Assembly: GCA_021801645.1 (NCBI GenBank)
Contig: JAJYXT010000078.1
Coordinates: 4,103-68,102, forward strand
Length of the DNA: 64,000 bases
Direction: 5' to 3'
Source: a bacterium
GTDB lineage: Bacteria > Chloroflexota > Dormibacteria > Aeolococcales > Bog-877
A program made the translations under genes and the position numbers. The notes below the pieces were generated by a model that saw only the letters and a list, made by a program, of their open reading frames with translations, searched no databases and was not told where the DNA came from. Shown piece after piece: positions 2,917-63,175 of this stretch. Each line of letters opens with the position of its first letter. Within the stretch, counting starts at the first letter, position 1.

Positions 2917-4527
2917 GTGGCCAGCGCCAGCCCCGATCGCCGTGACCTGCTGCTGGAGGCGGGCCTGGCGCTCACCTCCGAGCTCTCCCTGTCGTCGCTG
3001 CTGCGACGGATCGTGGAGCTCGCCTGCCAGCTCACCCAAGCCAGGTACGGGGCACTCGGTGTCCTCGGCCCGGGTGGCGGTATCTCTCAGTTCATCACCC
3101 ACGGACTGAGCGCCGGCGAGCGACGCCGGATCGGCAGCCCCCCAAAGGGCGTGGGGATCCTCGGTGCCCTGCTCCGGCCCGGGCCACCACTTCGCCTGGA
3201 GGACCTCGGCGCAGACCAGAGGTCAGTGGGATTCCCGCCCCACCACCCGCCCATGAGGACCCTCCTCGGAGCGCCGGTGGTGGTCCGCCGGACCGTCTTC
3301 GGCAGCATCTACCTCACCGAGAAGCGGGGTGGGCTTCCGTTCTCCGCGGAGGACCAGCGGGCCCTGGAGGTGCTCGCCGGTCAGGCGGCGGTCGCCATCG
3401 CCAACGCCACCCTCTACGAGCGGGCGGTGGCCCGCCAGCGCTGGCTGGGAGCTCTACAGGAGGTGGCTCAGGCCACCCTCGCCGGTCGAGAGCTGTCCGG
3501 TGTCCTGGGGCTGGTTGCCGCGCACAGCCGGGAGCTGGTCGGCGGAGGAGCCGCCCTTGTGGTGCGCGCGAACGGGGGGATGCGCCCGGGGCATGAGGTG
3601 CTGGCCGCGGCCGGTACGGGTGCCCGGACCATCACCCGGAGGCTGGGCGCCGACCCCCGGGATCCGGTCGTGCGCGCGATGCGCCGCGGCCGCCAGCTGC
3701 TGATCCAGCTCCCCACCAGTAGCCGGAACGGCTCGGGCCCGGGAGCGGCGCCGCTGGCGGTCCTGCCCTTCGGGGAAGGAGGCCCGAGCCGAGGAGCGCT
3801 GCTGGCCCTGGGGCCGGCCGGCGCCCCGGTGCCGGAATTGGAAGTCGTCGAAATGCTCGCTGCGCTGGCGGCCCAGTGCGCCGTTGCGTTGGAGTTCCAG
3901 CAAAGCCAGCTGGAGCGGCAGCGGCTGGCCCTGCTGGACGAGCGGGAGAGGATCGCCAGGGAGCTCCACGATGGTGTCATCCAGTCCCTGTTCGCCGTCG
4001 GAATGGGATTGCAGGCCGTGGCTCCTGCCGCCGACGAGGTCACCCGCCAGCGGCTCGAACGGGCGGTTCTGGAGCTCGACCAGGTGATCGGCGACCTGCG
4101 CCAGTACATCTTCGGACTCCGCCCTGGAATCCTGGGCTCCAGCCGCCTGGGCGAGGCGCTGCGTCGCCTGGGGGCGGATTTCCAGGATCGGTGCGGAGTC
4201 CGCACCGTGGTGGAGGTGGACGGGGAGGTGGAGGAGCGGCTCGGCGCGCAGGCAGGCGAGCTGCTCCAGCTGGCCAGAGAGGCACTGTCCAACATCGGCC
4301 GTCATGCCCAGGCCACCAGCTGCCGGGTGCAGGTCCGGGCAGGAGCGAGGTCCACGGTGGTCACCATCAGCGACGATGGCCGGGGGTTCACTGTCCGCAG
4401 GGCAAGGGGTCGTGGTCAGGGGTTGCAGAACATGCGGGATCGGGCTCGAGGCGTCGGGGGCAGGCTGGCGATCACCTCCGCCCCCGGTCAGGGCGCCCGC
4501 CTGCGGCTGGTGGTGCCCCATGGCTGA
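2917..4527 (+). CDS. GAF-domain sensor histidine kinase (GAF-GAF-HisKA_3-HATPase, DevS/DosS-like architecture)
   Basis: ORF 2917..4527 with a GTG start. Two GAF-like regions. H-box ERERIARELHDGVIQSLF. ATPase motifs DDGRGF and GQGLQNMRDRA. Confidence 0.85.
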   Translation: MASASPDRRDLLLEAGLALTSELSLSSLLRRIVELACQLTQARYGALGVLGPGGGISQFITHGLSAGERRRIGSPPKGVGILGALLRPGPPLRLEDLGADQRSVGFPPHHPPMRTLLGAPVVVRRTVFGSIYLTEKRGGLPFSAEDQRALEVLAGQAAVAIANATLYERAVARQRWLGALQEVAQATLAGRELSGVLGLVAAHSRELVGGGAALVVRANGGMRPGHEVLAAAGTGARTITRRLGADPRDPVVRAMRRGRQLLIQLPTSSRNGSGPGAAPLAVLPFGEGGPSRGALLALGPAGAPVPELEVVEMLAALAAQCAVALEFQQSQLERQRLALLDERERIARELHDGVIQSLFAVGMGLQAVAPAADEVTRQRLERAVLELDQVIGDLRQYIFGLRPGILGSSRLGEALRRLGADFQDRCGVRTVVEVDGEVEERLGAQAGELLQLAREALSNIGRHAQATSCRVQVRAGARSTVVTISDDGRGFTVRRARGRGQGLQNMRDRARGVGGRLAITSAPGQGARLRLVVPHG

Positions 4528-5188
4528 GCAACCGGGTCCCGGCCGGTTGCGGGTGATGCTGGTGGACGACCACGAGCTGGTCCGCGACGGCCTCCGCGCC
4601 GTCCTCGGCGCCACAGGGGAGTTCGACATCGTCGCCGAGGCCGGGGACGAGGCAGGGGCGATCCGAGAGGCCGAGCGCACCAGCCCCGACGTCGTTCTCA
4701 TGGACGTGCGCCTGGGCTCGGGGAGTGGGATTGAGGCGACCCGGGAGATAAGGGCCCGGAGGCCGGACACGAAGGTGCTCATGCTCACCTCCTTCGCGGA
4801 CGACGAGGCGCTGTTCGCCTCGATCATGGCTGGCGCAGCTGGATATCTCCTGAAGCAGATCCGCGGCGGGGAGATCGTGGCCGCGGTTCGAGCCATCGGA
4901 GCGGGAGGAAGCCTGCTGGACCCGGCCCTCACGCGCACGGTCCTGGACCAGTGGCGAGACGCCAGAAGCCGGCTCCGCGACGAGCGGCTGGCGCGGCTCT
5001 CGGCCCAGGAGGAACGCATCCTGACCCGAGTGGCCGCCGGGCGGACCAACCGGGAGATCGCCGCCGAGCTGCACCTGGCCGAGAAGACCGTCAAGAACTA
5101 CGTGTCCACCATCCTGGACAAGCTGGAGGTGGCCAGGCGAGCCGAGGCCGCCGCCTATCTGGCACGGCACGGTCGGCCGCCCGCCTGA
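4520..5188 (+). CDS. NarL/LuxR-family response regulator (REC + LuxR HTH)
   Basis: In frame inside ORF 4304..5188. The ATG at 4520 overlaps the kinase stop (ATGGCTGA). Receiver sequence RVMLVDDHELVRDGL...VVLMDVRL. HTH sequence LSAQEERILTRVAAGRTNREIAAELHLAEKTVKNYVSTI. Confidence 0.9.
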   Translation: MAEQPGPGRLRVMLVDDHELVRDGLRAVLGATGEFDIVAEAGDEAGAIREAERTSPDVVLMDVRLGSGSGIEATREIRARRPDTKVLMLTSFADDEALFASIMAGAAGYLLKQIRGGEIVAAVRAIGAGGSLLDPALTRTVLDQWRDARSRLRDERLARLSAQEERILTRVAAGRTNREIAAELHLAEKTVKNYVSTILDKLEVARRAEAAAYLARHGRPPA

Positions 5189-5274: not shown

Positions 5275-5697
5275 TTACCGGATGGCGGCGGGCAGGGCCG
5301 CCGCGCTGCGGGCAGCGGAAACGCCGCGGTGCGGCTCCAAGACCTGGTCCATGATTCCGTACTCGACCGCCTCAGCGGCGGTGAGGAAGTAGTCCCGGTC
5401 GATGTCCCGCTCGACCTGGGCCAGAGGTCGACCGGAGTGATGGGCGATGATCTCCGCCATCCGCCGGGTGTTTGCCAGCACCTCGCGCAGCTGGATCTCC
5501 ATGTCACGGGGGGCTCCGCGAGTTCCCGCTGTGCCTTGGTGGATCATGATCTTGCTGCTCGGGAGCGCCATCCGCCGACCGGCCGCTCCGCCGCAGAGGA
5601 TCATCGCGGCGGCCGACATCCCCATGCCAATACAGGTGGTGGCCACCGGGCAGCTCACCTGCTGCATCGCGTCGTAGATGGCGAAGCCGGCGGAGGA
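5275..5697 (-). pseudogene. ClpP-family serine protease fragment: C-terminal ~140 aa with Ser/His/Asp motifs but no recognisable in-frame N-terminus
   Basis: C-terminal part of ORF 5275..6054. It reads SSAGFAIYDAMQQV...GMGMSAAAM (Ser)...IMIHQG (His)...DIDRDYFLTAAEAVEYGIMDQVL (Asp). Upstream of ~5697 the same frame becomes R/S/P/W-rich with GC2>GC1, which is non-coding in character. Confidence 0.6.
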
Positions 5698-5897
5698 CCT
5701 GGCCCGATTCCTGGATGCCGAGTTGCGAGACCAGCAGAGGTGGCTGGAGCAGGTGGCCCAGGCAACCGGGCGGCCGTTCGGACTGGTGGAGGCGGACCGC
5801 CGCGCCGCTCTCTCTCCCGCCGGAAGCGGCGCTTCGCTACCGGCTGATCGACGAGGTGGTCGGCTCCCCCATGTCCTCGACGGGCTCGGTGAAGTAA
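5684..5897 (+). pseudogene. Frameshifted remnant resembling the C-terminal ~65 aa of a different ClpP paralogue
   Basis: The plus frame from 5678 reads AEDLARFLDAELRDQQRWLEQVAQATGRPFGLVEADRR. After a frame change near 5805-5812 it reads PLSLPPEAALRYRLIDEVVGSP, then a stop at 5897. Compare the window's intact ClpP: [60 protein letters not shown]. Hand count over 42 codons: GC1 34, GC2 19, GC3 37, which is coding-like. Confidence 0.45.
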
Positions 5898-6241
5898 GGG
5901 TCCTCCGGCTCTCCCCCACCGACCGCCAATCGGGCCGGCGGGAGGTCGCTGGCGCGCTCCGCCAGGCCGAGGATCTGGTCGCCGATCCCCTGTTGGCGCA
6001 GCACATCCCATCCGGACTCGGGGTCCAGCGGGGTGGAGGCCACCACCTGGTCACCCTCGATGTGGACGTCCCAGCCCAGGTTCTCCAGCCGGCGCAGCAC
6101 CGGCGAGAGGATGGCGGCGCGATCGTGGATCTCCTTGGCGGCGGCCGCGATCCGTACCGAGACCGGCAGGTCCTCGGGAGTGGGCCGGTCGGGGAAGCCG
6201 AAGGAGTGCATCTCCACGTAGGTTTCCATGTGCCGGGACAT
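5837..6241 (-). CDS. Hypothetical acidic protein (134 aa), last gene of the bc/bd-like operon
   Basis: In frame within ORF 5837..6997. ATG at 6241 (MSRHMETYVEMHSFGFPDRP...) with GGGAGG about 11 nt upstream. Normal amino-acid composition. No family recognised. The last ~20 codons overlap the plus-strand clpP remnant. Confidence 0.55.
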   Translation of the reverse strand: MSRHMETYVEMHSFGFPDRPTPEDLPVSVRIAAAAKEIHDRAAILSPVLRRLENLGWDVHIEGDQVVASTPLDPESGWDVLRQQGIGDQILGLAERASDLPPARLAVGGGEPEDPYFTEPVEDMGEPTTSSISR

Positions 6242-6303
6242 TGGCTGCCGGGTCACCTCCCGGAGCTCCTCACCCGCCCGCCGGATCGGCCGGAACACGA
6301 GCC

Positions 6304-7695
6304 TCACGGACCGGACCTCGTGGGCGCCAGAACCCCCAGGTTGCTGGCTGGACCGTTGAGCGCCGGGCCGTTGGTGGAGGGCGGGGTGTAGTTCTGCTGC
6401 TGGTTGATGAGCATGTGGTTGGTGATGAGGAAGGGCCCCCGGCTGTCCTCCCGGATGTACCCCATCAGCGCCATGATGAGGGAGATCGCCACCCCCACGG
6501 TGATGAGGGATATGGCCTGGCCCCTCCCGGCATCCCCCCAGTGCAGCCTGCCCCGCGAGAGGTGGACGGCGTAGATGGTGATCGCGGTGATGGTCACCCC
6601 GGTGAAGACGATGAGGGCCGTGAGCTTCCAGGGGATCATCTGCCCCCAGGGGATCAGCAGCCCGCCCTGCCAGATGGGGACGTTGGCGTTGGCCGCGAAG
6701 ACGTTCTCGTAGCTCCAGGCCAGCGATGAAGGGGTGGAGATGAGCAGCCAGGCGGCGAAGGAGAGGGCGGTGCACACCGCCAGCGCCGGGGAGCGGAAGC
6801 CGCTGACCCTGACCCGCCGCCACAGATAGAAGATACCCACGGTGAAGATGGCCCCCAGGAGGAACACCTGGAAGAGGAAGGCCACCGACAGCCCGCCGAG
6901 CATCATGCTGTACCACGAGGCGTAGGCGTGGAGCTGGATCTCCTTGGCGTACTCCCACCCAACCAGCGGCTGGGCGATGGTGAACCCCACAGCCCACATC
7001 AGCCCGTAGTGGCCCATCCAGTCCAGGTAGGCGCGGTGCAGCTGATGACGTGAGCGCCAGAGGAGACGGATCCCGGCCACCAGGGCCACCATGGCCCCGG
7101 CGAAGGCGATGTTGCCCACGAATCGGTGGATCTCCAAAGGGATCTCCGTGGGGTTCATGAGGATGAGCGGCAGGTTGAAGGCTGGCCGGGGGGTGAGCAT
7201 GTAGGACGCCACCACGTTGATCAGAAGCATCTGGATGCTGGCGTTGATGAAGAGGAGGAGCTCCAGCCCCACCCGCAGCCCGCGCACCCTGCCCAGCAGC
7301 TCCCAGCGCGCGTACAGCGGATAGAGGCAGACGATCTCGCCCACGAAGGCGGCCGCCTCGGCGACGAAGGGCCAGAAGAGGATGCGCTCCAGGGTCACGA
7401 AGAAGTGGCTCCAGAGCCCGAGGAAGAGGATCATCACCGCGAAGATCGCCAGGGAGCCACCGATCGCGAAGGTCGCCCCCAGAACCGTGACCAGCCCCTT
7501 GGAGAAGCGGTCGTAGTGGGGGTTGCGCCGCTTCCAGCCCATGAAGTCGGTGACCGCCAGGATTATGTATCCGCCCTGCTGGAAGGCGGCGAACTGGACG
7601 TGGCCGAGCATCAGCAGGGCGACCAGGGCGGTCGCCACTCCGGTGGAGATCGGTACCGGGGTGAGGTGGGGGCTGGAGGCGAGGATCAGGTGCAT
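6304..7695 (-). CDS. CydA-like (cytochrome bd subunit I family, bd-like) polytopic membrane protein, copy A
   Basis: ORF 6304..7695. By-eye collinearity with E. coli CydA. LGHVQFAAF matches the His19 region. PFVAEAAAFVGEIVCLY matches PLAIEGLMAFFLES. EIHRFVGNIAFAGAMV matches the KFVHTVASGYVTGAMF His186 region. GYIREDSRGPFLI matches GWFVAEYGRQPWAI. The start is 1 nt after the cytochrome b stop. Confidence 0.7.
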   Translation of the reverse strand: MHLILASSPHLTPVPISTGVATALVALLMLGHVQFAAFQQGGYIILAVTDFMGWKRRNPHYDRFSKGLVTVLGATFAIGGSLAIFAVMILFLGLWSHFFVTLERILFWPFVAEAAAFVGEIVCLYPLYARWELLGRVRGLRVGLELLLFINASIQMLLINVVASYMLTPRPAFNLPLILMNPTEIPLEIHRFVGNIAFAGAMVALVAGIRLLWRSRHQLHRAYLDWMGHYGLMWAVGFTIAQPLVGWEYAKEIQLHAYASWYSMMLGGLSVAFLFQVFLLGAIFTVGIFYLWRRVRVSGFRSPALAVCTALSFAAWLLISTPSSLAWSYENVFAANANVPIWQGGLLIPWGQMIPWKLTALIVFTGVTITAITIYAVHLSRGRLHWGDAGRGQAISLITVGVAISLIMALMGYIREDSRGPFLITNHMLINQQQNYTPPSTNGPALNGPASNLGVLAPTRSGP

Positions 7696-7696
7696 A

Positions 7697-8905
7697 TCAC
7701 AGGTTGAAGAGCCGGTTAACCGCCAGCAGCGCCTCGAAGAGAAGGAAGAGCACCACGAAGAGGGCCGGGATCATCACCTCGGGGCGGCGCCAGGGCTCCC
7801 TTCCCGGGGTCCGGTCGAGGAAGGGTACCAAGATCAGGAGGGTGGTCCCGATGCCCGGCACAATGAAGACCCCCACCGGGATCATCCAAGCCTGGGGGAA
7901 CTGCACCAGCATCTGATCGAGCGGCAAGAAGAACCACTCCGGGGTGGGGACGTAGTTGAGGGCGGCCGGATTGGCCGCGCGCTCCAGGGGAGCGCCGACC
8001 ACCACCGCCATGATGAAGATGATCAGCACCAGTCCAAAGCTGACCACCGAGTCCTTGAAGACCTGGGAGGGGAAGAACTCGTCGAGGTCCACCGGCACCG
8101 CGTATCCCGGGTCCGAGGGGATGGCGGGGTACGGGTACTCCACGTGGGCCATCCGCCGGGCCCGCTCCTCCGCGGTCTCCTCCTCAACCCCCTCGTAGTT
8201 CACCCAGGACCCGTGCTCTCCGTGACGCCGCAGCAGGATCAGGTGCAGCCCGATGAGGGGCACCAGCAGAGCCGGCAGCAGCCAGATGTGGATGGCGAAG
8301 AACCGGGTCAGGGTGGCCGGCCCCATCTGGGGCCCACCCCTGAGGATCTCCTGCAGCTGAGTCCCGAAGATGGGGAAGTACTCGATGACGTGGGTCACCA
8401 CGGTCGCCGTCCAGTAGGCGGCCTGGTCCCAGGGCAGCATCGCCCCGGTGATCCCCAGCCCCAGCACCAAGAGGAAGAGGATCACCCCCACGATCCAGTT
8501 GAGCTCTCGAGGCTTCTTGTAGGAGCCGCTCACGAAGGTGCGGACCATGTGCAGCCCGATCACCACGAAGAGCACGTAGGCGCCCCAGAGGTGCATCCCC
8601 CGGACGATGGCCCCGAACTCGTCATGCCTCTCGGTGAAGTTGAGGCTCTCCCAGGCCTCGGTGGTGGATGGCACGTAGGTCCAGAGCAGGAACATCCCGG
8701 TCACGATCTGGTTGACGATGAGGATCAGGGTGGCGCTGCCCAGGGAGTAGGCCCAGGCTCCGCGCCGGGGCACCGCCTCGTAGAGGAGCTGGTGGACCAG
8801 GTCGGTGACCCCCAACCGCTCATCCACCCACCTGTAGGTGACGGCCATCACCCCGGCGAACGGCCGGCTCAGGCGACCTGCCAGCCGGCTCCTCTCTGCG
8901 GCCAT
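7697..8905 (-). CDS. qcrB: Cytochrome b (b6/subunit IV-type fusion) of a Rieske/cyt b complex
   Basis: ORF 7697..8905. Four heme-ligand His contexts: RGMHLWGA, IGLHMVRT, FFAIHIWLLP, IGLHLILL. The Qo motif is PEWFFLP. The protein has no Cys, so no heme c site. Confidence 0.9.
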   Translation of the reverse strand: MAAERSRLAGRLSRPFAGVMAVTYRWVDERLGVTDLVHQLLYEAVPRRGAWAYSLGSATLILIVNQIVTGMFLLWTYVPSTTEAWESLNFTERHDEFGAIVRGMHLWGAYVLFVVIGLHMVRTFVSGSYKKPRELNWIVGVILFLLVLGLGITGAMLPWDQAAYWTATVVTHVIEYFPIFGTQLQEILRGGPQMGPATLTRFFAIHIWLLPALLVPLIGLHLILLRRHGEHGSWVNYEGVEEETAEERARRMAHVEYPYPAIPSDPGYAVPVDLDEFFPSQVFKDSVVSFGLVLIIFIMAVVVGAPLERAANPAALNYVPTPEWFFLPLDQMLVQFPQAWMIPVGVFIVPGIGTTLLILVPFLDRTPGREPWRRPEVMIPALFVVLFLLFEALLAVNRLFNL

Positions 8906-8908
8906 CGC

Positions 8909-9433
8909 CTACCCCTCCGTGAGCACGTTGCGGACGTACAGGGTGCTGCCCACCAGCTTGTGCTGGTAGCGGAAGAGCGGCTGCGGCGGGGGCCCCCCGA
9001 TGTTGGTCCCGTCGATGCTGTAGAGGCCGCCGTGGCAGGGGCAGAGGAAGACGTTGAGGTTGATGTCCCAGTGGACGTCGCACTGCATGTGGGTGCAGAC
9101 GTTGGAGAGGGTGATCAGCTGCACCTTGCCGTTCAGGTTGAGCTTGACCACGTAGACGGTGCGCGGCACCGGCGGCACCTGCCAGGCGTCCCCGCCCTGG
9201 TCCAGCAGGACCACGTAGGCGGTGGGGACCCCGACCGGGACATGCTGGATGTCGGCCACCATCACCCAGGGGTACCGGCCCCTGTAGAAGGCGGGGCTGA
9301 GGATCGACCCCACGATCGGCGCCCCGATGAGAAGGCCGATCCCGGCCCCGGTGGCCTGGATGCCGAGGGTCATGAACTTGCGCCGGGACATCCGGCGCTG
9401 GGAGACGGCCATCTCTGGGTCAGGCACTTCCAC
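8909..9433 (-). CDS. qcrA: Rieske [2Fe-2S] iron-sulfur protein with a twin-arginine signal
   Basis: ORF 8909..9433. Motifs CTHMQC and CPCHGG, with a Tat-like SRRKFMTLG. The start is either GTG 9433 or ATG 9412 (MAVSQRRMSRRKF). Confidence 0.9.
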   Translation of the reverse strand: MEVPDPEMAVSQRRMSRRKFMTLGIQATGAGIGLLIGAPIVGSILSPAFYRGRYPWVMVADIQHVPVGVPTAYVVLLDQGGDAWQVPPVPRTVYVVKLNLNGKVQLITLSNVCTHMQCDVHWDINLNVFLCPCHGGLYSIDGTNIGGPPPQPLFRYQHKLVGSTLYVRNVLTEG

Positions 9434-9653
9434 CCACCACCAGGAGGATCAAAAGGCTGAGGCAGAGCGCCAGAAAGAAGATGAAGGTGAAGAAGCTGGC
9501 GCCCATGGCCAGCCAGCCGGACATGGTGTCCCCGGCCACGAAGAGCTGGCGCACCCGGCGCATGGCCATCCAGAACCCGGTGAGCATGATCGCGAAGAAG
9601 GAGGTGATGATCAGCCCCAGGTACCAGGCCGACTCGAAGTCCTGATAGTTCAC
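9420..9653 (-). CDS. Small two-TM membrane protein (77 aa), putative accessory subunit
   Basis: In frame within ORF 9420..9713. The GTG at 9653 overlaps the upstream stop (GTGA). GC3 is very high. Two hydrophobic helices: WYLGLIITSFFAIMLTGFW and FFTFIFFLALCLSLLILLVV. Confidence 0.65.
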   Translation of the reverse strand: MNYQDFESAWYLGLIITSFFAIMLTGFWMAMRRVRQLFVAGDTMSGWLAMGASFFTFIFFLALCLSLLILLVVGGSA

Positions 9654-10879
9654 GGCAGGGTACCCGGCGGAGCGTTGAAGTTCTGCGCCGACTGGTGCAG
9701 GGAGAGCAGGCACGAGGACTGGCCGGTGCCGGCGTCGATCCCGCAGGGCAGCTTGGCGTTCTCCTTCACCACGCCCATGAAGATGGTGAGCGCGAGCGCC
9801 GCCACGGCCACCGCGCCCATGGCCCGCGGGACCATGGGCGCGAGCGGCACGCCGGCTCCTCCCCGGCGCACCTCAACCAGGTAGCGTCCGAGGTTGATCG
9901 CGGTGGCGATGAAGGCCACGAAGAGCGCCGTGTAGCGCAGCCAGACAAGACCGGGGGGTATGACCGCTGCAGGCAGGGCCGTGCCCGCCATCCCCAGCAA
10001 GGAGACCGCGGTCAGCCCCGCACCGGGGCCGGAGGAAGGCCCCCGGTGCAGCCAGAAGACGAGGTTCGCCCCCACCACCACCACCGCCAGAAGCCCCACC
10101 TGGCCGATGAACATGCTGCCCGAGTTGAAGACGAAGAGGTTGTCGAAGGCCCCGATGGAGCTTGTCTTGATCGCCTCGGCCAGAAGGAACCCACTGATCG
10201 GTTGGGCCAGAAGGAAGATCGACCCGATGGCGAAGGTGACCCGGCTCGTCCAGGTGTGGTACTGGCGCTCTTCCTCGGTCTTGGCCCGCCGCGCCCTCCA
10301 GACGGCGATCGCCGCCAGCACCAGCGCCGACCAAGAGAGGGTGGCACCGGCGTAGTGCAGCAGTAGCCAGGGGTAGCTCGGCGAATACATGGCATGGGCC
10401 GCGCTGACCGCTGTCCCCGGGGTGAGGGCGAAGCTATCCAGCTGGACGATCATGAAGAGGAAGAGGTACTGGATCAGGGCAAATGTGAGCCCCACCGCCA
10501 GGTGCAGCCTTGGCCCCAGGCGATCCCACCCGTACACATAGAGCAGCAGGAGGGGGATGCCCACGAAGAAGCTGGCGAAGGCGATGGTCAGGGGGAGCAG
10601 CAGGAGGTTGAGCAGGGTCCCGATCAGCCGGCCGTAGAGGCCGGTGAGCAGAACCACCGCGAACACCGCCCAGGTGGCGCCGAAGCTGTACAGATAGAGC
10701 ACCGAACGCGACAGCCCGCGAGCGTACCGAAGGCAGTTGGGGCTGGCGCCGGGACGCCTCCCGACCAGCTCCATGACGGGGGCGATCCCGGCGGCCCCCA
10801 GGATGTAGCCCACGATGGCGATGTGGATGAGGAAGGTCGCCCCGATGGCGAACTCAGCGCCCAGGGTGCCCAGGGGCAA
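9650..10879 (-). CDS. CydA-like (bd-like) polytopic membrane protein, copy B
   Basis: ORF 9650..10996. LIHIAIVGY matches the His19 region. LLLHYAGATLSWSALVLAAIAVW matches the His186 region. The C-terminal GVVKENAKLP matches the E.GRQPW region. The first ~39 codons of the long ORF have lower GC3 and would overlap the divergent holA start. I therefore prefer TTG 10879, but the start is uncertain. Confidence 0.65.
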   Translation of the reverse strand: MPLGTLGAEFAIGATFLIHIAIVGYILGAAGIAPVMELVGRRPGASPNCLRYARGLSRSVLYLYSFGATWAVFAVVLLTGLYGRLIGTLLNLLLLPLTIAFASFFVGIPLLLLYVYGWDRLGPRLHLAVGLTFALIQYLFLFMIVQLDSFALTPGTAVSAAHAMYSPSYPWLLLHYAGATLSWSALVLAAIAVWRARRAKTEEERQYHTWTSRVTFAIGSIFLLAQPISGFLLAEAIKTSSIGAFDNLFVFNSGSMFIGQVGLLAVVVVGANLVFWLHRGPSSGPGAGLTAVSLLGMAGTALPAAVIPPGLVWLRYTALFVAFIATAINLGRYLVEVRRGGAGVPLAPMVPRAMGAVAVAALALTIFMGVVKENAKLPCGIDAGTGQSSCLLSLHQSAQNFNAPPGTLP

Positions 10880-10983
10880 CCGGGGTTGCGGGCTCGGGAA
10901 GGCAGACAGCAGCACTGGCACCCAATGCTGACGGGCTGAGGGGGCCCAAGGCAAGCCGGGAGCGGCCCGGCGATAATCGAGAG

Positions 10984-11934
10984 GTGCCGGAGCCATTGGT
11001 CCTTCTCCACGGAGAGGACCGCTACCTGGTCACCGAGGCCGCTGCTGCCCTCCGCAGCCAACTGGTCGAGGAGATGGGCTCCGAGCTGGGGCTGGAGGAG
11101 TTCCGGGACCTCTCCGACGGCGACGCCATCGAGCGAAGCCTGGCCAGCCCCCCCTTCCTGGCGCTTCGCCGGGTCGTGGTCCTCTGGGACCCGCAGATCG
11201 GGCCCCGGGGAACGCGAGAGACGGAGGATGTGCTCCGAGCCATCTCCCACCGGGCAGAGACCACGGCGGTGTTGGTCGTGGTCCGGGCCGTGGTGCCGAC
11301 CACCAACAACCTGCACCGCGGCCTGCGCGAGCTGGGCGCCGACGTCCGGCTCATCCCGCGGCCGAAGGGAGCAGCGCTGCGGCACCACGTTGACCAACGG
11401 GTCCGGGCCCGGGGCCTCAACCTCGCGGCCCAGCTGTCGCCCAGGCTGCTGGAGCTCGCCGCTGAGAGCCTGGGCCGGCTGGAGATGGAGCTGGACAAGC
11501 TGGCGCTTTATCCCGAACGTCCAGGAGAGCTGATCAGTGAGGAGGTGGGCTCCCGGCTGCTCACTCCGGTGCCGCCCAGGGAGCTCTACCGCCTCACCGA
11601 CGCGATCTTCGATTCGCCCAGCCGGGTGGGAGGCCTCCTCGCCGGCCTCATGTCGCGTCCCGAGGTGCCCCCCCAGCTGGTCATCGGCGCGCTGGCCAGG
11701 GCGCTCCGCGACCTCATCTCCATGGCCGACGGCGGCGCGGGAGCAGCCCCCGCCTGGAAGGCCGAGCGGATGAGTCGGCAGCTGAGACGGGCCGGAACGC
11801 CGCGGCTGCAGCGCTGGCTGGTGGCCCTCGCCGACCTCGACTGGGAGATCCGCGTGGGTCGGCTCGACGCCGTCCAGGGGCTGGAGACCCTAGTGGCCCG
11901 CATGGCGGCGGAGCTGTCGCCCCGCGCCGCCTGA
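10984..11934 (+). CDS. holA: DNA polymerase III delta subunit
   Basis: ORF 10984..11934 with a GTG start. Typical N-terminus LVLLHGEDRYLV. Its length, and its position next to rpsT as in many bacteria, also fit. Confidence 0.8.
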   Translation: MPEPLVLLHGEDRYLVTEAAAALRSQLVEEMGSELGLEEFRDLSDGDAIERSLASPPFLALRRVVVLWDPQIGPRGTRETEDVLRAISHRAETTAVLVVVRAVVPTTNNLHRGLRELGADVRLIPRPKGAALRHHVDQRVRARGLNLAAQLSPRLLELAAESLGRLEMELDKLALYPERPGELISEEVGSRLLTPVPPRELYRLTDAIFDSPSRVGGLLAGLMSRPEVPPQLVIGALARALRDLISMADGGAGAAPAWKAERMSRQLRRAGTPRLQRWLVALADLDWEIRVGRLDAVQGLETLVARMAAELSPRAA

Positions 11935-29093: not shown

Positions 29094-29348
29094 TCAGCCG
29101 GAGGGAGGAACCGGTCTGGGCTCATCCCGGCGGGCCCTCCGGCTCGGGTTGCCGTCCATGACGAGGGCCAGCGCCGGGCAGGCACCGACGGTCCGGCGAG
29201 CCAGCCGGCCCAGGTGGCGTGGCACCGGGTCAGCGGAGATGATCGGATAGCCGAAGTCATCCAGCGTGATCAGCTCGGGCAGCATCTCTGCGCAGAGCCG
29301 GTGGCCGACGCAGAGGGTGGGATCCACGTGCAGGTAGCGGCCGCTCAC
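29094..29348 (-). CDS. Small ferredoxin (84 aa)
   Basis: C-terminal part of ORF 29094..29615. The GTG at 29348 overlaps the upstream stop (GTGA). Sequence: YLHVDPTLCVGHRLCAEMLPELITLDDFGYP...ACPALAL. Confidence 0.7.
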   Translation of the reverse strand: MSGRYLHVDPTLCVGHRLCAEMLPELITLDDFGYPIISADPVPRHLGRLARRTVGACPALALVMDGNPSRRARRDEPRPVPPSG

Positions 29349-30643
29349 TGCGGATCCGGGGCAGGGGGCAGCGACAGCAACGAAGGCCGGTAGCCACCAC
29401 AGGCTCCCGAACGGTGGCGCCGCAGCTCGTCTGGGAAGGCGCTGGCCGCCGAGCGGGCAAGGTTCACCGCCCCGTCCGGGTGCCGACAGGCGCCGCGGCC
29501 CTCGATCTGGTCGCCCCACCGCTCCAGCTGCTCCAGCGCCGCTTCCGAGCCGGTCTTGGCCACCTCGTTCAGGGCTGAAGCCATCGCCGGAAGACCGAAG
29601 GCGCAGGGCCCACACTGGCGGGCTCCCTGGGCCGCCAGCCAGGCCAGGATCCGCCCTGACTCCCGAAGTCCGCAGGTGCCCTGGGGAAGCAGGTGGAGGA
29701 CCCCGGCCCCGGGAGTCGCCCCGGCCGGGCGAAGGCCGCTCCGGGAGAGCGTGAGCCGCTGGACGTCGGGGGCTCGCAGCCAGGAGCCGAAATAGCCGCC
29801 CACCAGCAGAGCTACGGCCCCAGGATCGGCCCCGGCCACGTAGAGGACTTCGGGAAGCGGGGTGCCGATGGGCACCTCATAGACCCCGGGCGCCTCCACC
29901 GCTCCGCTGAGGGTCACGAGCATGGTGCCGGGCTCGTCGGCGACCCCAGCCCCCCGGAACCACTCCGGCCCAAGCCGGACCACCAGGCCGAGGTGGGCAA
30001 GCGTCTCGACGTTCTGCACCAGGGTCGGCAGCCCCCGCCATCCCCGGTCGACCACCCGGGGGGGCTGGTACCGGGGAAGGGCCTGGCCACCCTCCAGCCA
30101 GCGGATCAGAGCGGTCTCCTCGCCGCCCACGAAGTTCGTCGGCCCGCGCACCACCTCGACCGGGATCGGCACGTCCGGGCGTTCCCGGAGAGCTGCCTCC
30201 ACCGCCGCCACCGCCGGGGCTGTGTGGGCGACCAGGAATGCCTGTCGAGCGCCGAGGATTCGGGTAGCCGCCAGCAACCCATCGAGGACCAGGTGGGGAC
30301 GGAGGCGGAGCAGGAGGTCATCCTTGCCCGCCGCCGGTTCGGTCTCCGAACCGTTCGCCACCACCACCGACCCCGGGCCGTGGCGGCGCACGGCGGCCAG
30401 CTTCTCGGCCGTCGGGAAGCCGCCACCACCACGCCCCCGAAGACCGGAGCGCCGCACCCGCTCCAGGAGCTGGTGGTGCCCCGCCCTTCCCGTCCAGTCT
30501 GTGATGCCTCCGCCCAGCCTGCCCACGTGGTCTGCCAGCGGCTCGGCCCCGCCCAGCTTCGGCCCGGCCAGGAGGCGCTGATTCCAGGGACCGCTTCGGG
30601 GCACACGCAGCTCCCCCGGCGCGGCCGGGGCTACAAGGGTCAC
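29345..30643 (-). CDS. NuoF-like (complex I 51-kDa family) NADH/FMN/[4Fe-4S] protein
   Basis: ORF 29345..30643 (GTG, GTGA overlap). FMN site RGRGGGGFPTAEK. GGEETALI. Cluster ligands QCGPCAFG...GACRHPDG. Confidence 0.8.
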   Translation of the reverse strand: MTLVAPAAPGELRVPRSGPWNQRLLAGPKLGGAEPLADHVGRLGGGITDWTGRAGHHQLLERVRRSGLRGRGGGGFPTAEKLAAVRRHGPGSVVVANGSETEPAAGKDDLLLRLRPHLVLDGLLAATRILGARQAFLVAHTAPAVAAVEAALRERPDVPIPVEVVRGPTNFVGGEETALIRWLEGGQALPRYQPPRVVDRGWRGLPTLVQNVETLAHLGLVVRLGPEWFRGAGVADEPGTMLVTLSGAVEAPGVYEVPIGTPLPEVLYVAGADPGAVALLVGGYFGSWLRAPDVQRLTLSRSGLRPAGATPGAGVLHLLPQGTCGLRESGRILAWLAAQGARQCGPCAFGLPAMASALNEVAKTGSEAALEQLERWGDQIEGRGACRHPDGAVNLARSAASAFPDELRRHRSGACGGYRPSLLSLPPAPDPQ

Positions 30644-31752
30644 GAGTCCTGGCCACCGTCCTGGCCGGCTCCGCCAGCGGGGGCACTGCCAAAGTAGAAA
30701 AGGCCAGAGACCGAGGAGGCGGGGACGGGGCCACTGATGGTCAGCTCAGCCGGCTCCGATTGGCCTCCGCCAGCAGCGAGCCTCATGATCAGTGAACCTG
30801 GACCCACCGACACGACCCTGCCCGTGTAGACCAAGGACCCGGGGGCGGGCCGGTAGGTGACCGACCCCTGGTCCACCGCGATGGTTCCGTCGGGCAGCTG
30901 GCTGGCGGACAGGGAGACCAGAAGCTGGCCCCCCACTCCTCCCTGCACCTGTCCAGAGATGGTGATCGTCTCACCGTTGCCGCCTGCGGAGGAGGTGGCC
31001 GAGCCCACGAACCTGGCCGTGAAGGGGGCCGGGAGGGACGCCTGCCCGCCAGCGCCCGTCGAGGCCGGAGCTCCCGAGGCGAGTGCGGTGGTGGGAGTCC
31101 CGGCTTGCCGGGCCCAGCCACTCTGCAGCGGCCCGGCCGCCGACCAGGCCAGAACCGCCATGGGGGTGGCCGCGACCGCCGCCATGATGACGCCCCGCAC
31201 GGCCACCCGCGGCCGGGTGGCCCGGGCCACCCGGAAGATCACTGTCGTAGCCACCAGTCCCACGCAGCCCAACTCGAACCCGAAGACCCAGGTGAGCTTG
31301 GTGTCGGTGCCGGTGCCCAGCGAATGGAGGACGGCAACCGGCCAGGAGACGTAGGTGAGCCAGTGGATCACCCGCCACCAGCGTGGCCGAAGGTGGGATC
31401 GCAGCAGGCTGGTTACCACCACGGCGGCCATGAGGTCCAGGCTGAGGGTGCCGAGCCCCAGCCAGAAGGGCCGGTAAGGGCTCACGAACGGCACCAGGGC
31501 CGCCCACCAGCCGACCGGGACGAACGGGTCCAGCTCGATGGTGACCACGTGGATGGTCAGGAGCACCACAGCCAGGAGGGCGAGGTTGCGATGCACCGCC
31601 TGCACCGCAAACCGCGGCCAGCTCTCGGGGTGCCACCCGCCCTGGATGGCGATCCCCATGACCAGATTGACCGTGAGCACCGCCAGCAGCACCAGACCAC
31701 TTCCGCGGGCCAGGTACCAGAGAGTCATCGTCCCTCCGACGGCGGCGGCCAT
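30640..31752 (-). CDS. Ferric-reductase/MsrQ-like di-heme transmembrane protein with an extracytoplasmic C-terminal domain
   Basis: ORF 30640..31752. TM His pairs: AVHRNLALLAVVLLTIHVV and VIHWLTYVSWPVAVLHS. The ~170-aa Ser/Gly-rich C-terminal domain has unknown fold. Confidence 0.75.
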   Translation of the reverse strand: MAAAVGGTMTLWYLARGSGLVLLAVLTVNLVMGIAIQGGWHPESWPRFAVQAVHRNLALLAVVLLTIHVVTIELDPFVPVGWWAALVPFVSPYRPFWLGLGTLSLDLMAAVVVTSLLRSHLRPRWWRVIHWLTYVSWPVAVLHSLGTGTDTKLTWVFGFELGCVGLVATTVIFRVARATRPRVAVRGVIMAAVAATPMAVLAWSAAGPLQSGWARQAGTPTTALASGAPASTGAGGQASLPAPFTARFVGSATSSAGGNGETITISGQVQGGVGGQLLVSLSASQLPDGTIAVDQGSVTYRPAPGSLVYTGRVVSVGPGSLIMRLAAGGGQSEPAELTISGPVPASSVSGLFYFGSAPAGGAGQDGGQDS

Positions 31753-61032: not shown

Positions 61033-62286
61033 TCAGGCCGAGGCCGCCTCCTCCTCGACCACCAGCTCTGGGTCGGTGGCCTCCAGGATGGAGCTTTCGG
61101 TGATGATGCAGCGCTTCACCTCGGGACGGGAGGGCACCTCGAACATGCTGCTGAGGAGGGCAGCTTCCAGGATGCTCTTGAGCCCGCGGGCCCCGGTCCC
61201 CAGCGAAAGCGCCTTGTGGGCGATGGCCCGCAGTGCCGCCTCCTCGAAGACCAGCTCGACATCGTCCAGGGCGAAGAACTTCTCGTACTGCTTGACGAAG
61301 GCGTTCTTGGGCTCGGTGAGGATGTGGAGGATGTCCTCCTCGTCCAGGCTCTCCAGCGAGACCACGACCGGGAGCCTCCCGACGAACTCAGGGATGAGGC
61401 CGTAGCGAAGCAGGTCCTGGGCCTGGAGCTGGTGCAGAATCTGGGTGCTTTCCTTGGTCCTCGGCCCTCCGGGCTCGCTGGAGAACCCGATGGTCCGGTG
61501 TCCCACACGCTGCTCGATGATCCGCTCCAGCCCCTCGAACGCCCCCCCGCAGATGAAGAGGATGTTGGCGGTGTTGATCTGGATGAAGTCCTGGTGGGGG
61601 TGCTTCCGACCTCCCTGGGGCGGCACGTTGGCCACCGTCCCCTCAAGGATCTTCAGAAGCGCCTGCTGGACGCCCTCCCCGGAGACATCCCGGGTGATCG
61701 AGGGGTTGTCCGACTTGCGGGAGATCTTGTCGATCTCGTCGATGTAGATGATCCCCCTCTCCGCCCGCGCCACATCGAAGTCGGCGGCCTGAATCAGGCG
61801 CAGCAGGATGTTCTCGACGTCCTCGCCGACGTACCCGGCCTCGGTGAGGGAGGTGGCGTCGGCGATGGAGAAGGGCACGTCCAGCACCTTGGCCAGGGTC
61901 TGGGCGAGGAGGGTCTTGCCGCACCCGGTGGGACCGACCAGGAGCACGTTGGACTTCTGCAGCTCGACGTCGCCCACCTCGCGCGCGTGGTTGACTCTCT
62001 TGTAGTGGTTGTAGACGGCCACCGAGAGCACCCGCTTCGCCTGATCCTGGCCCACCACGTACTGGTTTAGGGAGTCCCAGATCGCCTGGGGGCTGGGCAC
62101 CACGTTGGTGCGGGGGCGATGGGCCGCCGCGCCCTTGCTCTCCTCCTCCAGCACCTCCTGGCAGAGCTCAATGCACTGGTCGCAGATGTAGACCCCGGGG
62201 CCGGCGATCAGCTTGCGGACCTGATCCTGACCCTTGTTGCAGAACGAGCAGCGGGTGTGGCGCCGCCGGTCGTCCCGCTCGTTCAT
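61033..62286 (-). CDS. clpX: ATP-dependent Clp protease ATP-binding subunit ClpX
   Basis: In ORF 61033..62583. ATG 62286 ([42 protein letters not shown]). Walker [18 protein letters not shown]. Confidence 0.95.
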
Positions 62287-62495
62287 GCCGCGCTCCCGCC
62301 GTCCCCGGGCCCGCCGAGCCCGGCGGCGAGGCGGGCCACGCAGCTGGGGCAGATCGCCGCCTGGTCGCTGCCACCGCCCGCGACCAGCGCCACCGCGGTC
62401 GCCGGCCGCCCGCAGAAGCCACACCTCGCCCCCCTCCCCCGCACCAGCTTGAGCAGTGCGCCCTGCCCCTCGCCCGTGCGCCGAGACCTTGGCAT
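62283..62495 (-). CDS. Stand-alone ClpX-type C4 zinc-ribbon (ZBD-like) mini-protein, 70 aa
   Basis: ORF 62283..62495. The ATG is 11 nt after the clpP stop, and the stop overlaps the clpX ATG (ATGA). [33 protein letters not shown] compares with Clp[34 protein letters not shown]3 is very high. Confidence 0.5.
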
Positions 62496-62506
62496 CTCCT
62501 TCGCCC

Positions 62507-63175
62507 TCAGCTCCCGGCCGGGGCGGGTGCCGCCGCCTCTTCGCTCGCCTCAGCGGGCGCCTTGCCGTTGGCGGGCGCTGCACTGTCGGCGCCGCGCTGG
62601 GGGCTCAGGATGTGGTCGATGAGCCCGTACTCCAGCGCTTCCTGGGGGGACATGTAGAAGTCACGGTCCGAATCCCTGGTTATCTGCTCCACCGGCTTGC
62701 CGGTGTGGTAGGCCAGGATCTGGTCGATGGTCCGGCGGAGCCGGAGGATCTCCTGCGCCTGGATCTGAATGTCGGCGGCCTGCCCCTGGAAGCCGCCACT
62801 GGGCTGGTGCATCATGATCCGGGTGTTGGGGAGGCTGAAACGCTGGCCCTTGGCCCCACCCGCCAGAAGGATGCACCCGAAAGAGGCCGCCAGCCCCATG
62901 CAGAAGGTGCTCACCTTGGGCTTGATGTACTGCATGGTGTCGTAGATTGCCAGGCCCGCGGAGACGGAGCCGCCGGGGCTGTTGATGTAGACGTTGATGT
63001 CGCGCTCCGGATCCTCGCTCTCCAGATAGAGCATCTGGGCCATCACCAGGTTGGCGATCTGGTCATCGATGGCGGTGCCGATGAAGATGATCCGGTCCTG
63101 CAGCAGCCTCGAGTAGATGTCGAAGGCGCGCTCGCCCCGGCTGGTGGTCTGAACGACCATCGGAATGAGGGCCAT
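62507..63175 (-). CDS. clpP: ATP-dependent Clp protease proteolytic subunit
   Basis: ORF 62507..63175. [49 protein letters not shown]. Confidence 0.95.

Follow-up and report, generated by a model that had tools for sequence, protein, structure and literature searches.

A conserved operon of the OR-N5a/b type, with Rieske and cytochrome b genes between two CydA paralogs, in a Dormibacterota contig

The 64,000-nucleotide stretch of contig JAJYXT010000078.1 analyzed here (the window) carries on its minus strand, at positions 5837-10996, a set of six genes whose start and stop codons, read directly from the sequence, overlap or nearly abut. In the order of reading, these encode a paralog of cytochrome bd subunit I (CydA) of the OR-N5b type (g1, 9650-10996, 448 residues as the longest open reading frame (ORF)), a 77-residue protein with two hydrophobic transmembrane (TM) segments (g2, 9420-9653), a Rieske [2Fe-2S] protein of the bc/b6f type and of the twin-arginine translocation (Tat) class (g3, 8909-9433, 174 residues), a cytochrome b in which a b6-like and a subunit IV-like part are fused (g4, 7697-8905, 402 residues), a second CydA paralog of the OR-N5a type that is the putative catalytic three-heme subunit (g5, 6304-7695, 463 residues), and an acidic protein of the Dormibacterota-type operon with no TM segment or signal peptide (g6, 5837-6307, 156 residues). 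An initial annotation of this DNA had correctly placed and identified the first five genes on this strand and proposed that they are tightly coupled in translation, which the junction sequences bear out: g1/g2 and g5/g6 are joined by GTGA overlaps, g3/g4 by a 3-nucleotide gap (TAG-GCG-ATG), g4/g5 by a 1-nucleotide gap (TGA-T-ATG), and g2/g3 by either a 14-nucleotide overlap or a 7-nucleotide gap, depending on whether g3 starts at GTG 9433 or at ATG 9412. The same annotation read the downstream acidic gene as encoding 134 residues, which needs correction to 156 residues from a GTG start at 6307. As this GTG overlaps the g5 stop codon and the N-terminal extension it adds (MRLVFRPIRR) is kept among homologs, the operon comprises six coupled genes and not five; most alignment rows carry the extension, and database gene calls for the family run to 139-157 residues. 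At the other end, the true start of g1 is probably a GTG near 10921/10915, about 25 codons inside ATG 10996, giving a product of ~423 residues, because homologs are 421-424 residues long (covering 94% of the query) and two GTG codons lie there; the shortened start also clears an overlap with a divergent ORF that begins at 10984. The G+C content of the window is ~70%, and the five operon ORFs checked have a third-position G+C of 0.84-0.97. A promoter and terminator scan of the operon region returned no promoters, and terminator-like matches only inside genes.

The assignment of the two flanking proteins, g1 and g5, to the relatives of cytochrome bd subunit I had been made by eye, and profile, BLASTP and structure matches now agree with it. 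The Pfam search suggested as a check succeeded for one of the two: g1 matches PF01654 (Cyt_bd_oxida_I) with 50.9 bits against a cut-off of 26.2, over profile positions 5-236 only, the N-terminal half, whereas g5 has no Pfam match at E ≤ 1 and no NCBIfam match either. We nevertheless regard g5 as CydA-like because it is a paralog of g1 (25% identity over 418 columns, BLASTP E = 2e-17), because a profile of its family built from 16 sequences matches Geobacillus CydA (5doq_A, E = 6e-15), and because its AlphaFold model (predicted local distance difference test (pLDDT) 75.4, predicted template modeling score 0.79, 10 long helices) retrieves CydA chains as its ten best Foldseek matches in the PDB, all with probability 1.00 and with nothing else significant. 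Thus, g1 and g5 are paralogs with the fold of cytochrome bd subunit I. In the g5 model, TM6 (218-256) and TM7 (269-297) are connected by a linker of ~12 residues, and g5 therefore has no Q-loop, as had been proposed. The helix number of g1 comes from a hydropathy count only and is ambiguous.

For residue conservation, orthologs were drawn from a scan for homologous loci at one genome per species, which yielded 80 loci. Via Geobacillus CydA, profile alignment equates g5 H32 with H19 of E. coli CydA, E113 and E120 with E99 and E107, H190 with H186, and the block IRE416DSR419 with AE445xGR448. Residues H32, E113, H190, R415, E416, and R419 are kept in 76-78 of 78 orthologs (33-99% identical), so that the heme-ligand positions H32, H190, and E416 are near-invariant; E113 is present in all 78 and E120 is Glu in 60. 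H190, the His of the low-spin heme, lies at the periplasmic end of TM5; canonical enzymes have the Q-loop as a cover over this heme. A second group of residues follows TM6 (Y249, K251, E252, Q254, W261, and M265), each kept in 76-78 of the 78 orthologs, and M265, which is invariant (78/78), sits at the positive (P)-side start of TM7. The C-terminal 45 residues, disordered in the model, would be periplasmic on the basis of CydA topology and the helix count. In g1, the residues kept at ≥97% across ~76 orthologs are P38, H58, R90, I183, P193, H214, W249, G269, Q299, P342, M407, G408, and P448. Here H58 corresponds to E. coli H19 and H214 to H186, only these two His ligands are kept, and the positions aligned with g5 E113/E120 are hydrophobic. 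Of the ligands said to be retained in both flanking proteins, the TM1 His and the His186 equivalent are indeed found in both, and the E-x-x-R block is found in g5 only. By analogy with CydA' of the archaeal CydAA' enzymes, g1 is a putative degenerate b-type paralog that occupies the structural place of CydB, and the missing CydB that the initial annotation treated as a puzzle is then no puzzle, the second paralog being read as the CydB-like partner.

The genes between the two paralogs encode a complete-looking quinol-oxidizing module. The Rieske protein g3 matches PF00355, and its best NCBIfam models are those of b6f PetC, at 54.7 bits and below cut-off. Both cluster boxes, C113-x-H115-x2-C118 and C131-x-C133-H134, are present with the disulfide cysteines included, along with a twin-arginine motif; R17-R18, C113, H115, C118, C131, C133, and H134 are kept at ≥97% in 71 orthologs, and all 71 share the box II sequence CPCHGGxY. 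A Gly at the position usually held by Ser in Rieske box II is associated with lower-potential, menaquinol-oxidizing complexes. Cytochrome b (g4) matches PF00033 with 160 bits, PF13631, and, weakly, PF00032, and among NCBIfam models cytochrome b6 with 219 bits and b6f subunit IV weakly. Its heme ligands H105/H119 and H206/H221 are conserved with x13 and x14 spacing, and the Qo motif is P-E-W-F, its Glu being present in 66 of 70 orthologs and replaced by Gln in four. No Cys occurs at the heme ci position, which is S, T, or A across orthologs. In one locus (L084) the counterpart of g4 is split into two genes.

The two small genes are also recurrent. g2 was found by tblastn in 33 loci, in the same operon slot across clades; a distant counterpart (L081, 6077-6325) matches the window at E = 3e-4, and an ORF of 70-82 residues lies between the N5b and Rieske genes in L081, L082, and L085. 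g2 may be a small structural subunit. Members of the g6 family occur in 37 loci, directly after N5a in the clade of the window and, at 24-50% identity and again coupled to N5a, in a deeper Dormibacterota/Chloroflexota clade; a homolog with 24% identity (E = 3e-8) lies directly after N5a in a distant clade. g6 has no Pfam or NCBIfam match, and its AlphaFold model (pLDDT 78) has no fold match in the PDB at E ≤ 0.001. The idea that g6 is a degenerate cytochrome c or cupredoxin was rejected, as the protein lacks both Cys and a signal peptide and is predicted to fold differently. In L081 (9865-10254) and 23 other deeper-clade loci a CheY-like receiver-only protein, identified by eye, is encoded right after the g6-like gene.

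Gene order across relatives, a check that had been called for, could be counted at 61 loci with at least 3.4 kb of sequence upstream of N5a, and the order N5b-(small)-Rieske-cytochrome b-N5a is found on one strand in all 61. These loci span Dormibacterota, Chloroflexota, Ktedonobacterales (the metagenome-assembled genome (MAG) L080), and Rubrobacteraceae (the MAG L079), and the median N5b-Rieske spacing of 256 nucleotides leaves room for an ORF of the size of g2. The nearest proteins, at 96-97% identity, come from Candidatus Dormibacterota MAGs. A search without a word index over 1.84 billion cluster representatives returned 998 proteins at E ≤ 1e-3 and 122 at E ≤ 1e-30; the family is real but not large. 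Eight of the loci, in SMAG_ records (L012, L022, L024, L025, L028, L035, L041, and L048), come from bins titled Micrarchaeaceae/Micrarchaeia archaeon, Acidiferrales, Nanopelagicaceae, Verrucomicrobiia, Angelobacter, Eisenbacteria, and Binatus; their operons are 38-77% identical to the Dormibacterota operon and have the same synteny, and the taxonomic labels of these eight bins are probably wrong. A separate observation, which came from the gene tables and was followed by targeted tblastn, concerns a PCP_red (PF08369) protein with an N-terminal Cys knuckle, whose gene immediately precedes N5b on the same strand in 29 deeper-clade loci (L081, 4028-4783, and 28 further loci within L034-L078) and which is seen also in L085 and L086. 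In L086, a locus of the OR-N2 type, PCP_red forms a fusion with Usp and with a radical SAM/SPASM protein. An association of PCP_red with OR-N operons recurs, and the PCP_red gene is absent from the window.

An operon of this kind has been described before. Murali, Gennis & Hemp (2021; bioRxiv 10.1101/2021.01.16.426971; ISME J 2021) recognize three families in the cytochrome bd superfamily, namely qOR, OR-C, and OR-N, give the N3, N4, and N5 proteins ~10 helices, infer that the a and b subfamilies form one enzyme of which the a-type keeps E99/E107, and catalog OR-N5a and OR-N5b genes in an operon with petA-petB-petD (Rieske, cytochrome b). Their Table S6 lists H24, E104, E111, H132, Q146, H183, and E406 for Rubrobacter xylanophilus N5a (WP_143528031.1) and H34, A115, T122, and H202 for N5b (WP_143528035.1), a pattern in which the a-type has the equivalents of H19, E99, E107, H186, and E445 and the b-type has two His only; Table S3 lists OR-N, qOR1, and qOR2 for Dormibacterota. 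The two R. xylanophilus accession numbers differ by four, as expected for five adjacent genes. The match to this published reference was made by proxy, with the Rubrobacteraceae ortholog in L079 standing in for the R. xylanophilus sequences: H24, E104, E111, H132, Q146, and H183 of the L079 N5a protein align with H32, E113, E120, R141, Q155, and H190 of g5. The window proteins show CydA homology, no Q-loop, no CxxCH motif, ~10 helices (in the g5 model), the a/b residue pattern, and a petABD-type operon. The absence of CxxCH sets them apart from OR-C. On these residue signatures, the operon context, and the L079 alignment, we assign the operon to the published OR-N5a/b-petABD type, as its Dormibacterota member. 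It is a real and well-conserved respiratory module and not a new kind of system, and the genome scan likewise met a cataloged family again, not a new one. The initial annotation had known of no arrangement with two copies flanking the bc genes, a claim that the 2021 catalog shows to be wrong; its proposal that a bc module is wired to a bd-like protein is reasonable in itself and is not a new idea, the same inference standing in the literature. It had also allowed that the operon might already be functionally described, and we found no experimental work on OR-N enzymes in the literature; on OR-N5 experiments or the respiratory chain of Dormibacterota nothing relevant was found. No mention of g6 was found in the accessible portion of Murali et al. 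(2021).

With the R. xylanophilus type the window shares two CydA paralogs of ~10 helices without a Q-loop or heme c motif and with the a/b residues, and its five-gene order from N5b to N5a is identical to that of L079. It differs in that its proteins are only ~33% (N5a) and ~24% (N5b) identical to the Rubrobacteraceae proteins, the cytochrome b and subunit IV parts are fused, the H126 equivalent is Arg and not His, and g6 is coupled to N5a. Other members of the superfamily are found beside quinol-oxidizing complexes too. The CIII_1/bd-like_1/bd-like_2 cluster of Nitrospira (OR-N1/OR-N2; Lucker et al. 2010, cited in PMC6606698) similarly combines a c1-less Rieske/cytochrome b with CydA-only proteins, but these belong to a different subfamily with 14 helices and are accompanied by several c-type cytochromes and an EbdC-like subunit; in Nitrospira moscoviensis the products of such a cytochrome-c1-less Rieske/cytochrome b cluster and of the neighboring bd-like genes have been proposed to assemble into a complex III-IV supercomplex (PMC6606698). 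In Nitrospirales the same oxidase subfamily as in the window, OR-N5, lies directly downstream of a quinol-oxidizing complex, which there is alternative complex III with heme c subunits and not a Rieske/cytochrome b module (PMC12342949). The archaeal CydAA' (qOR4a/qOR4b, Caldivirga maquilingensis), for which O2 reductase activity has been shown, consists of two CydA paralogs without CydB, the second of which keeps H19 and loses the proton channel; unlike g5, its CydA keeps the quinol site and oxidizes quinol itself, and it has no Rieske/cytochrome b partner (Murali et al. 2021). Canonical cytochrome bd (CydABX; PDB 6rx4, 5doq, 7nkz) shares with the window the subunit I fold, the di-heme ligands, and the low-spin heme His, whereas the window has no CydB, Q-loop, or assigned Met ligand, has an extra helix and a C-terminus that would be periplasmic, and presumably draws its electrons from the Rieske cluster and not from bound quinol. 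The bc part resembles b6f and Firmicute bc complexes in its b6-type cytochrome b (x13/x14), subunit IV part, PEWY-like Qo motif, and Tat-type Rieske protein with disulfide, and with the actinobacterial bcc-aa3 supercomplexes the operon shares the idea of hard-wiring complex III to a terminal oxidase; in contrast to all of these, the window lacks cytochrome f, cytochrome c1, a dihaem c subunit, and the heme ci Cys, and its partner is of the bd type and not heme-copper.

The operon probably encodes a quinol:O2 oxidoreductase made up of a CydAA'-like bd-type reductase and a bc-type module that supplies it with electrons. Quinol, probably menaquinol, would be oxidized at a Qo site to which cytochrome b (g4) and the Rieske protein (g3) both contribute, with one electron passing through hemes bL and bH in a Q-cycle and the other passing from the [2Fe-2S] cluster to the periplasm-facing low-spin heme of N5a (g5, H190), either directly or via a small periplasmic carrier. 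From there the electron would reach the di-heme site (H32, E416), where O2 would be reduced with cytoplasmic protons delivered via E113/E120. N5b (g1) would stand in CydB's place, as CydA' does in archaeal CydAA', and g2 and g6 would serve as accessory subunits or assembly factors. The gene content, the folds, the conservation of ligands and of the operon, and the lack of heme c motifs are observed, whereas we infer that hemes fill these sites, that the bc and bd-like modules associate physically, that electrons take this path, and that O2 is the substrate.

A more specific version, which we hold only tentatively and would not bet on, has the Rieske protein docking directly on the Q-loop-less periplasmic face of N5a and reducing its low-spin heme, so as to form a heme-c-free and copper-free "bc-bd" quinol:O2 supercomplex that combines a Q-cycle with bd-type charge separation. 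In that case the Rieske protein would dock at Y249-x-K251-E252...W261...M265, a motif that would also supply the missing heme ligand, and g6 would belong to the complex as a subunit on the cytoplasmic side. M265 is a candidate ligand of the low-spin heme by its position in the sequence and topologically plausible, lying where canonical CydA has its Met ligand. In either scheme, the Q-cycle would work in series with bd-type charge separation and move ~2x the charge per electron of canonical bd.

What lies around the operon bears on the electron path. As the initial annotation stated, the six products contain no CydB and no CxxCH motif. CxxCH is likewise absent from the homologs at the 80 related loci (77 N5b and 80 N5a orthologs) and from every stop-to-stop ORF of at least 80 residues in any frame of the whole window (1-64000). 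No CydB, cytochrome c, or other oxidase gene was found within the 64-kb window, the best tblastn match to a cupredoxin there has E = 0.2 and is not counted as a homolog, and no cytochrome c or cupredoxin carrier gene lies near the operon in the window or in the closest relatives. The lack of a c-type cytochrome holds for the lineage of the window; as a trait of the family it does not, since sister operons of Chloroflexota encode one.

Several observations count against the proposed oxidoreductase, and some of them concern such carriers. In two Chloroflexota-type operons from metagenomes a lipoprotein monoheme cytochrome c is encoded with its start overlapping the N5a stop (L082, 9275-9721; L085, 8353-8844); a lipoprotein type-1 copper protein (cupredoxin) follows N5a directly in L055, L067, and L072; in P0052 a cupredoxin is fused to the N5a C-terminus; and in ~20 loci of the clade at 61-78% identity (L011-L032) a convergent cupredoxin gene lies ~1.35 kb downstream. 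The cupredoxin lead came from an all-against-all clustering of flanking ORFs that was swamped by spurious high-G+C ORFs, and was followed by targeted tblastn. The slot after N5a thus varies by lineage and in most Dormibacterota holds the cytosolic g6-type gene. Because sister operons encode a cytochrome c or a cupredoxin, a periplasmic carrier may normally stand between the Rieske protein and N5a, or the complex may reduce such carriers. These carriers, recurrent partners of the module, may be a bridge from the Rieske protein, an extra entry point, or an output, and it is possible that the window's genome encodes one elsewhere. Taken further, the same genes would fit two separate enzymes that merely share a transcript, the Rieske/cytochrome b complex reducing a soluble periplasmic cupredoxin or cytochrome c, encoded elsewhere, that N5a/N5b then oxidizes, with neither a fixed supercomplex nor direct transfer. 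That OR-N enzymes are generally assumed to take their electrons from cytochrome c (PMC10839748) speaks for this, as do the carrier genes directly after or fused to N5a, the cupredoxin genes within ~1.4 kb in L011-L032, and the pairing of OR-N5 with alternative complex III in Nitrospirales, which makes it a portable module (PMC12342949). We consider this explanation unlikely, however, as no carrier gene accompanies the operon of the window and its closest relatives, the window contains no CxxCH ORF or cupredoxin homolog, translational coupling runs throughout, and the oxidase subunit genes are split by the bc genes in 61 of 61 loci, which would be odd for independent modules.

The active-site residues furnish further objections. 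The second channel Glu, E120, is replaced by Q, M, or Y in 18 of the 78 orthologs, the equivalent of E. coli H126 is Arg (R141) in g5, and Table S6 of Murali et al. (2021) gives OR-N5a no equivalent of E. coli M393, the second axial ligand of the low-spin heme. The lack of an assigned M393-type ligand would suit an analog of complex III, in which electrons leave the Rieske cluster for periplasmic acceptors through the N5a/N5b hemes in place of cytochrome c1/f and no O2 is reduced; so would an operon with a complete Qo/Rieske module but no c1, f, or dihaem c subunit, and the carrier genes that accompany N5a in several clades. The equivalents of H19, E99, E445, and R448 are, however, invariant in the 78 orthologs and would be needless in a simple wire, and all characterized members of the superfamily are O2 reductases (Murali et al. 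2021), which makes such an analog improbable. An O2-reducing site is the economical reading, since N5a keeps its di-heme site intact together with at least the first proton-channel Glu, which a mere electron wire would not need.

The deviations in the proton channel, R141 for His and a variable E120, could also be taken to mean that the bd-like pair reduces nitric oxide (NO), H2O2, or another small oxidant, or that it serves detoxification or redox stress and not energy conservation. A sensor like DevS/DosT adjoins the operon, and in mycobacteria such proteins sense O2, NO, and CO. Peroxidase activity and a part in NO tolerance are described for canonical bd oxidases as well (PMC4899803; PMC10839748). 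We nonetheless rate a substrate or role of this sort as very unlikely, given that no positive evidence points to it and that the link to a Q-cycle module suggests energy conservation, not scavenging. The proposed quinol:O2 oxidoreductase must finally be set against the state of the field: no biochemical or spectroscopic study of any OR-N enzyme was found in the literature, the PDB holds no OR-N structure, and gene order is the sole basis on which the bc and bd-like modules are associated.

Nitrospira, Nitrospina, and many soil phyla are believed to use OR-N enzymes as their terminal oxidases, and later genome papers, which have adopted the 2021 nomenclature, call these enzymes "yet uncharacterized" (PMC10839748). 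Within this family the OR-N5 plus bc operon is the simplest version, having five or six genes and neither c-type cytochromes nor copper, and for these reasons it is the cleanest test system for two questions: whether a bd-type active site without a quinol site is still an oxygen reductase, and whether a Rieske cluster can donate directly to a b-type heme of another enzyme. Dormibacterota persist in nutrient-poor soils, and as an alternative to canonical bd this complex would offer them better energy efficiency. The interest that the operon of the window retains after the 2021 catalog lies in the c-free and copper-free version of this lineage, in the conserved sixth gene, and in the possible direct transfer from the Rieske cluster to a bd heme.

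The operon lies among housekeeping genes (tig-clpP-clpX, valS, metE, obg, ppk, murT/gatD, rpiA). On the plus strand, a sensor kinase at 2917-4527 has a GAF-A domain that matches the heme GAF-A domains of M. tuberculosis DosT/DevS with E = 3e-39 to 7e-38 (PDB 2vzw, 2w3d), together with a HisKA_3 and an ATPase domain, and it is followed by a NarL/LuxR-type response regulator at ~4520-5188, also on the plus strand. The pair resembles the DosS/DosR system and is convergent on the operon; such a pair also adjoins the operon in the six close relatives L001, L003, L004, L006, L007, and L009, in the last of these only ~0.65 kb beyond N5a. This neighboring heme-GAF sensor pair is weakly consistent with O2- or redox-linked control of the operon.

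The region 5275-5900 lacks ~960 bp, at a junction near 5696-5699, relative to L001, L003, L004, and L006, which are ~88-92% identical there. In L004 two divergent genes of the ClpP family have their 5' parts in the absent stretch (8003-8965), together with a gene for an XRE-type regulator, and the window keeps only two 3' ClpP remnants, one on the minus strand corresponding to CLP_protease profile positions 61-180 and a fragment of the other paralog on the plus strand. Either the stretch was truly deleted, leaving pseudogenes behind, or its absence is an artifact of assembly; an intact clpP-clpX pair is present at 61033-63175. Two further loci in the window were noted. On the minus strand, a NuoF-like gene (29345-30643; FMN-binding 51K domain and 4Fe-4S region) overlaps by 4 nucleotides a gene for a membrane protein with a weak Ferric_reduct match (30640-31752), a pairing that is unusual outside a complex I operon. 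Upstream of the DosS-like kinase, 1232-2872 on the minus strand encodes a 546-residue protein with Fer4_5 4Fe-4S domains.

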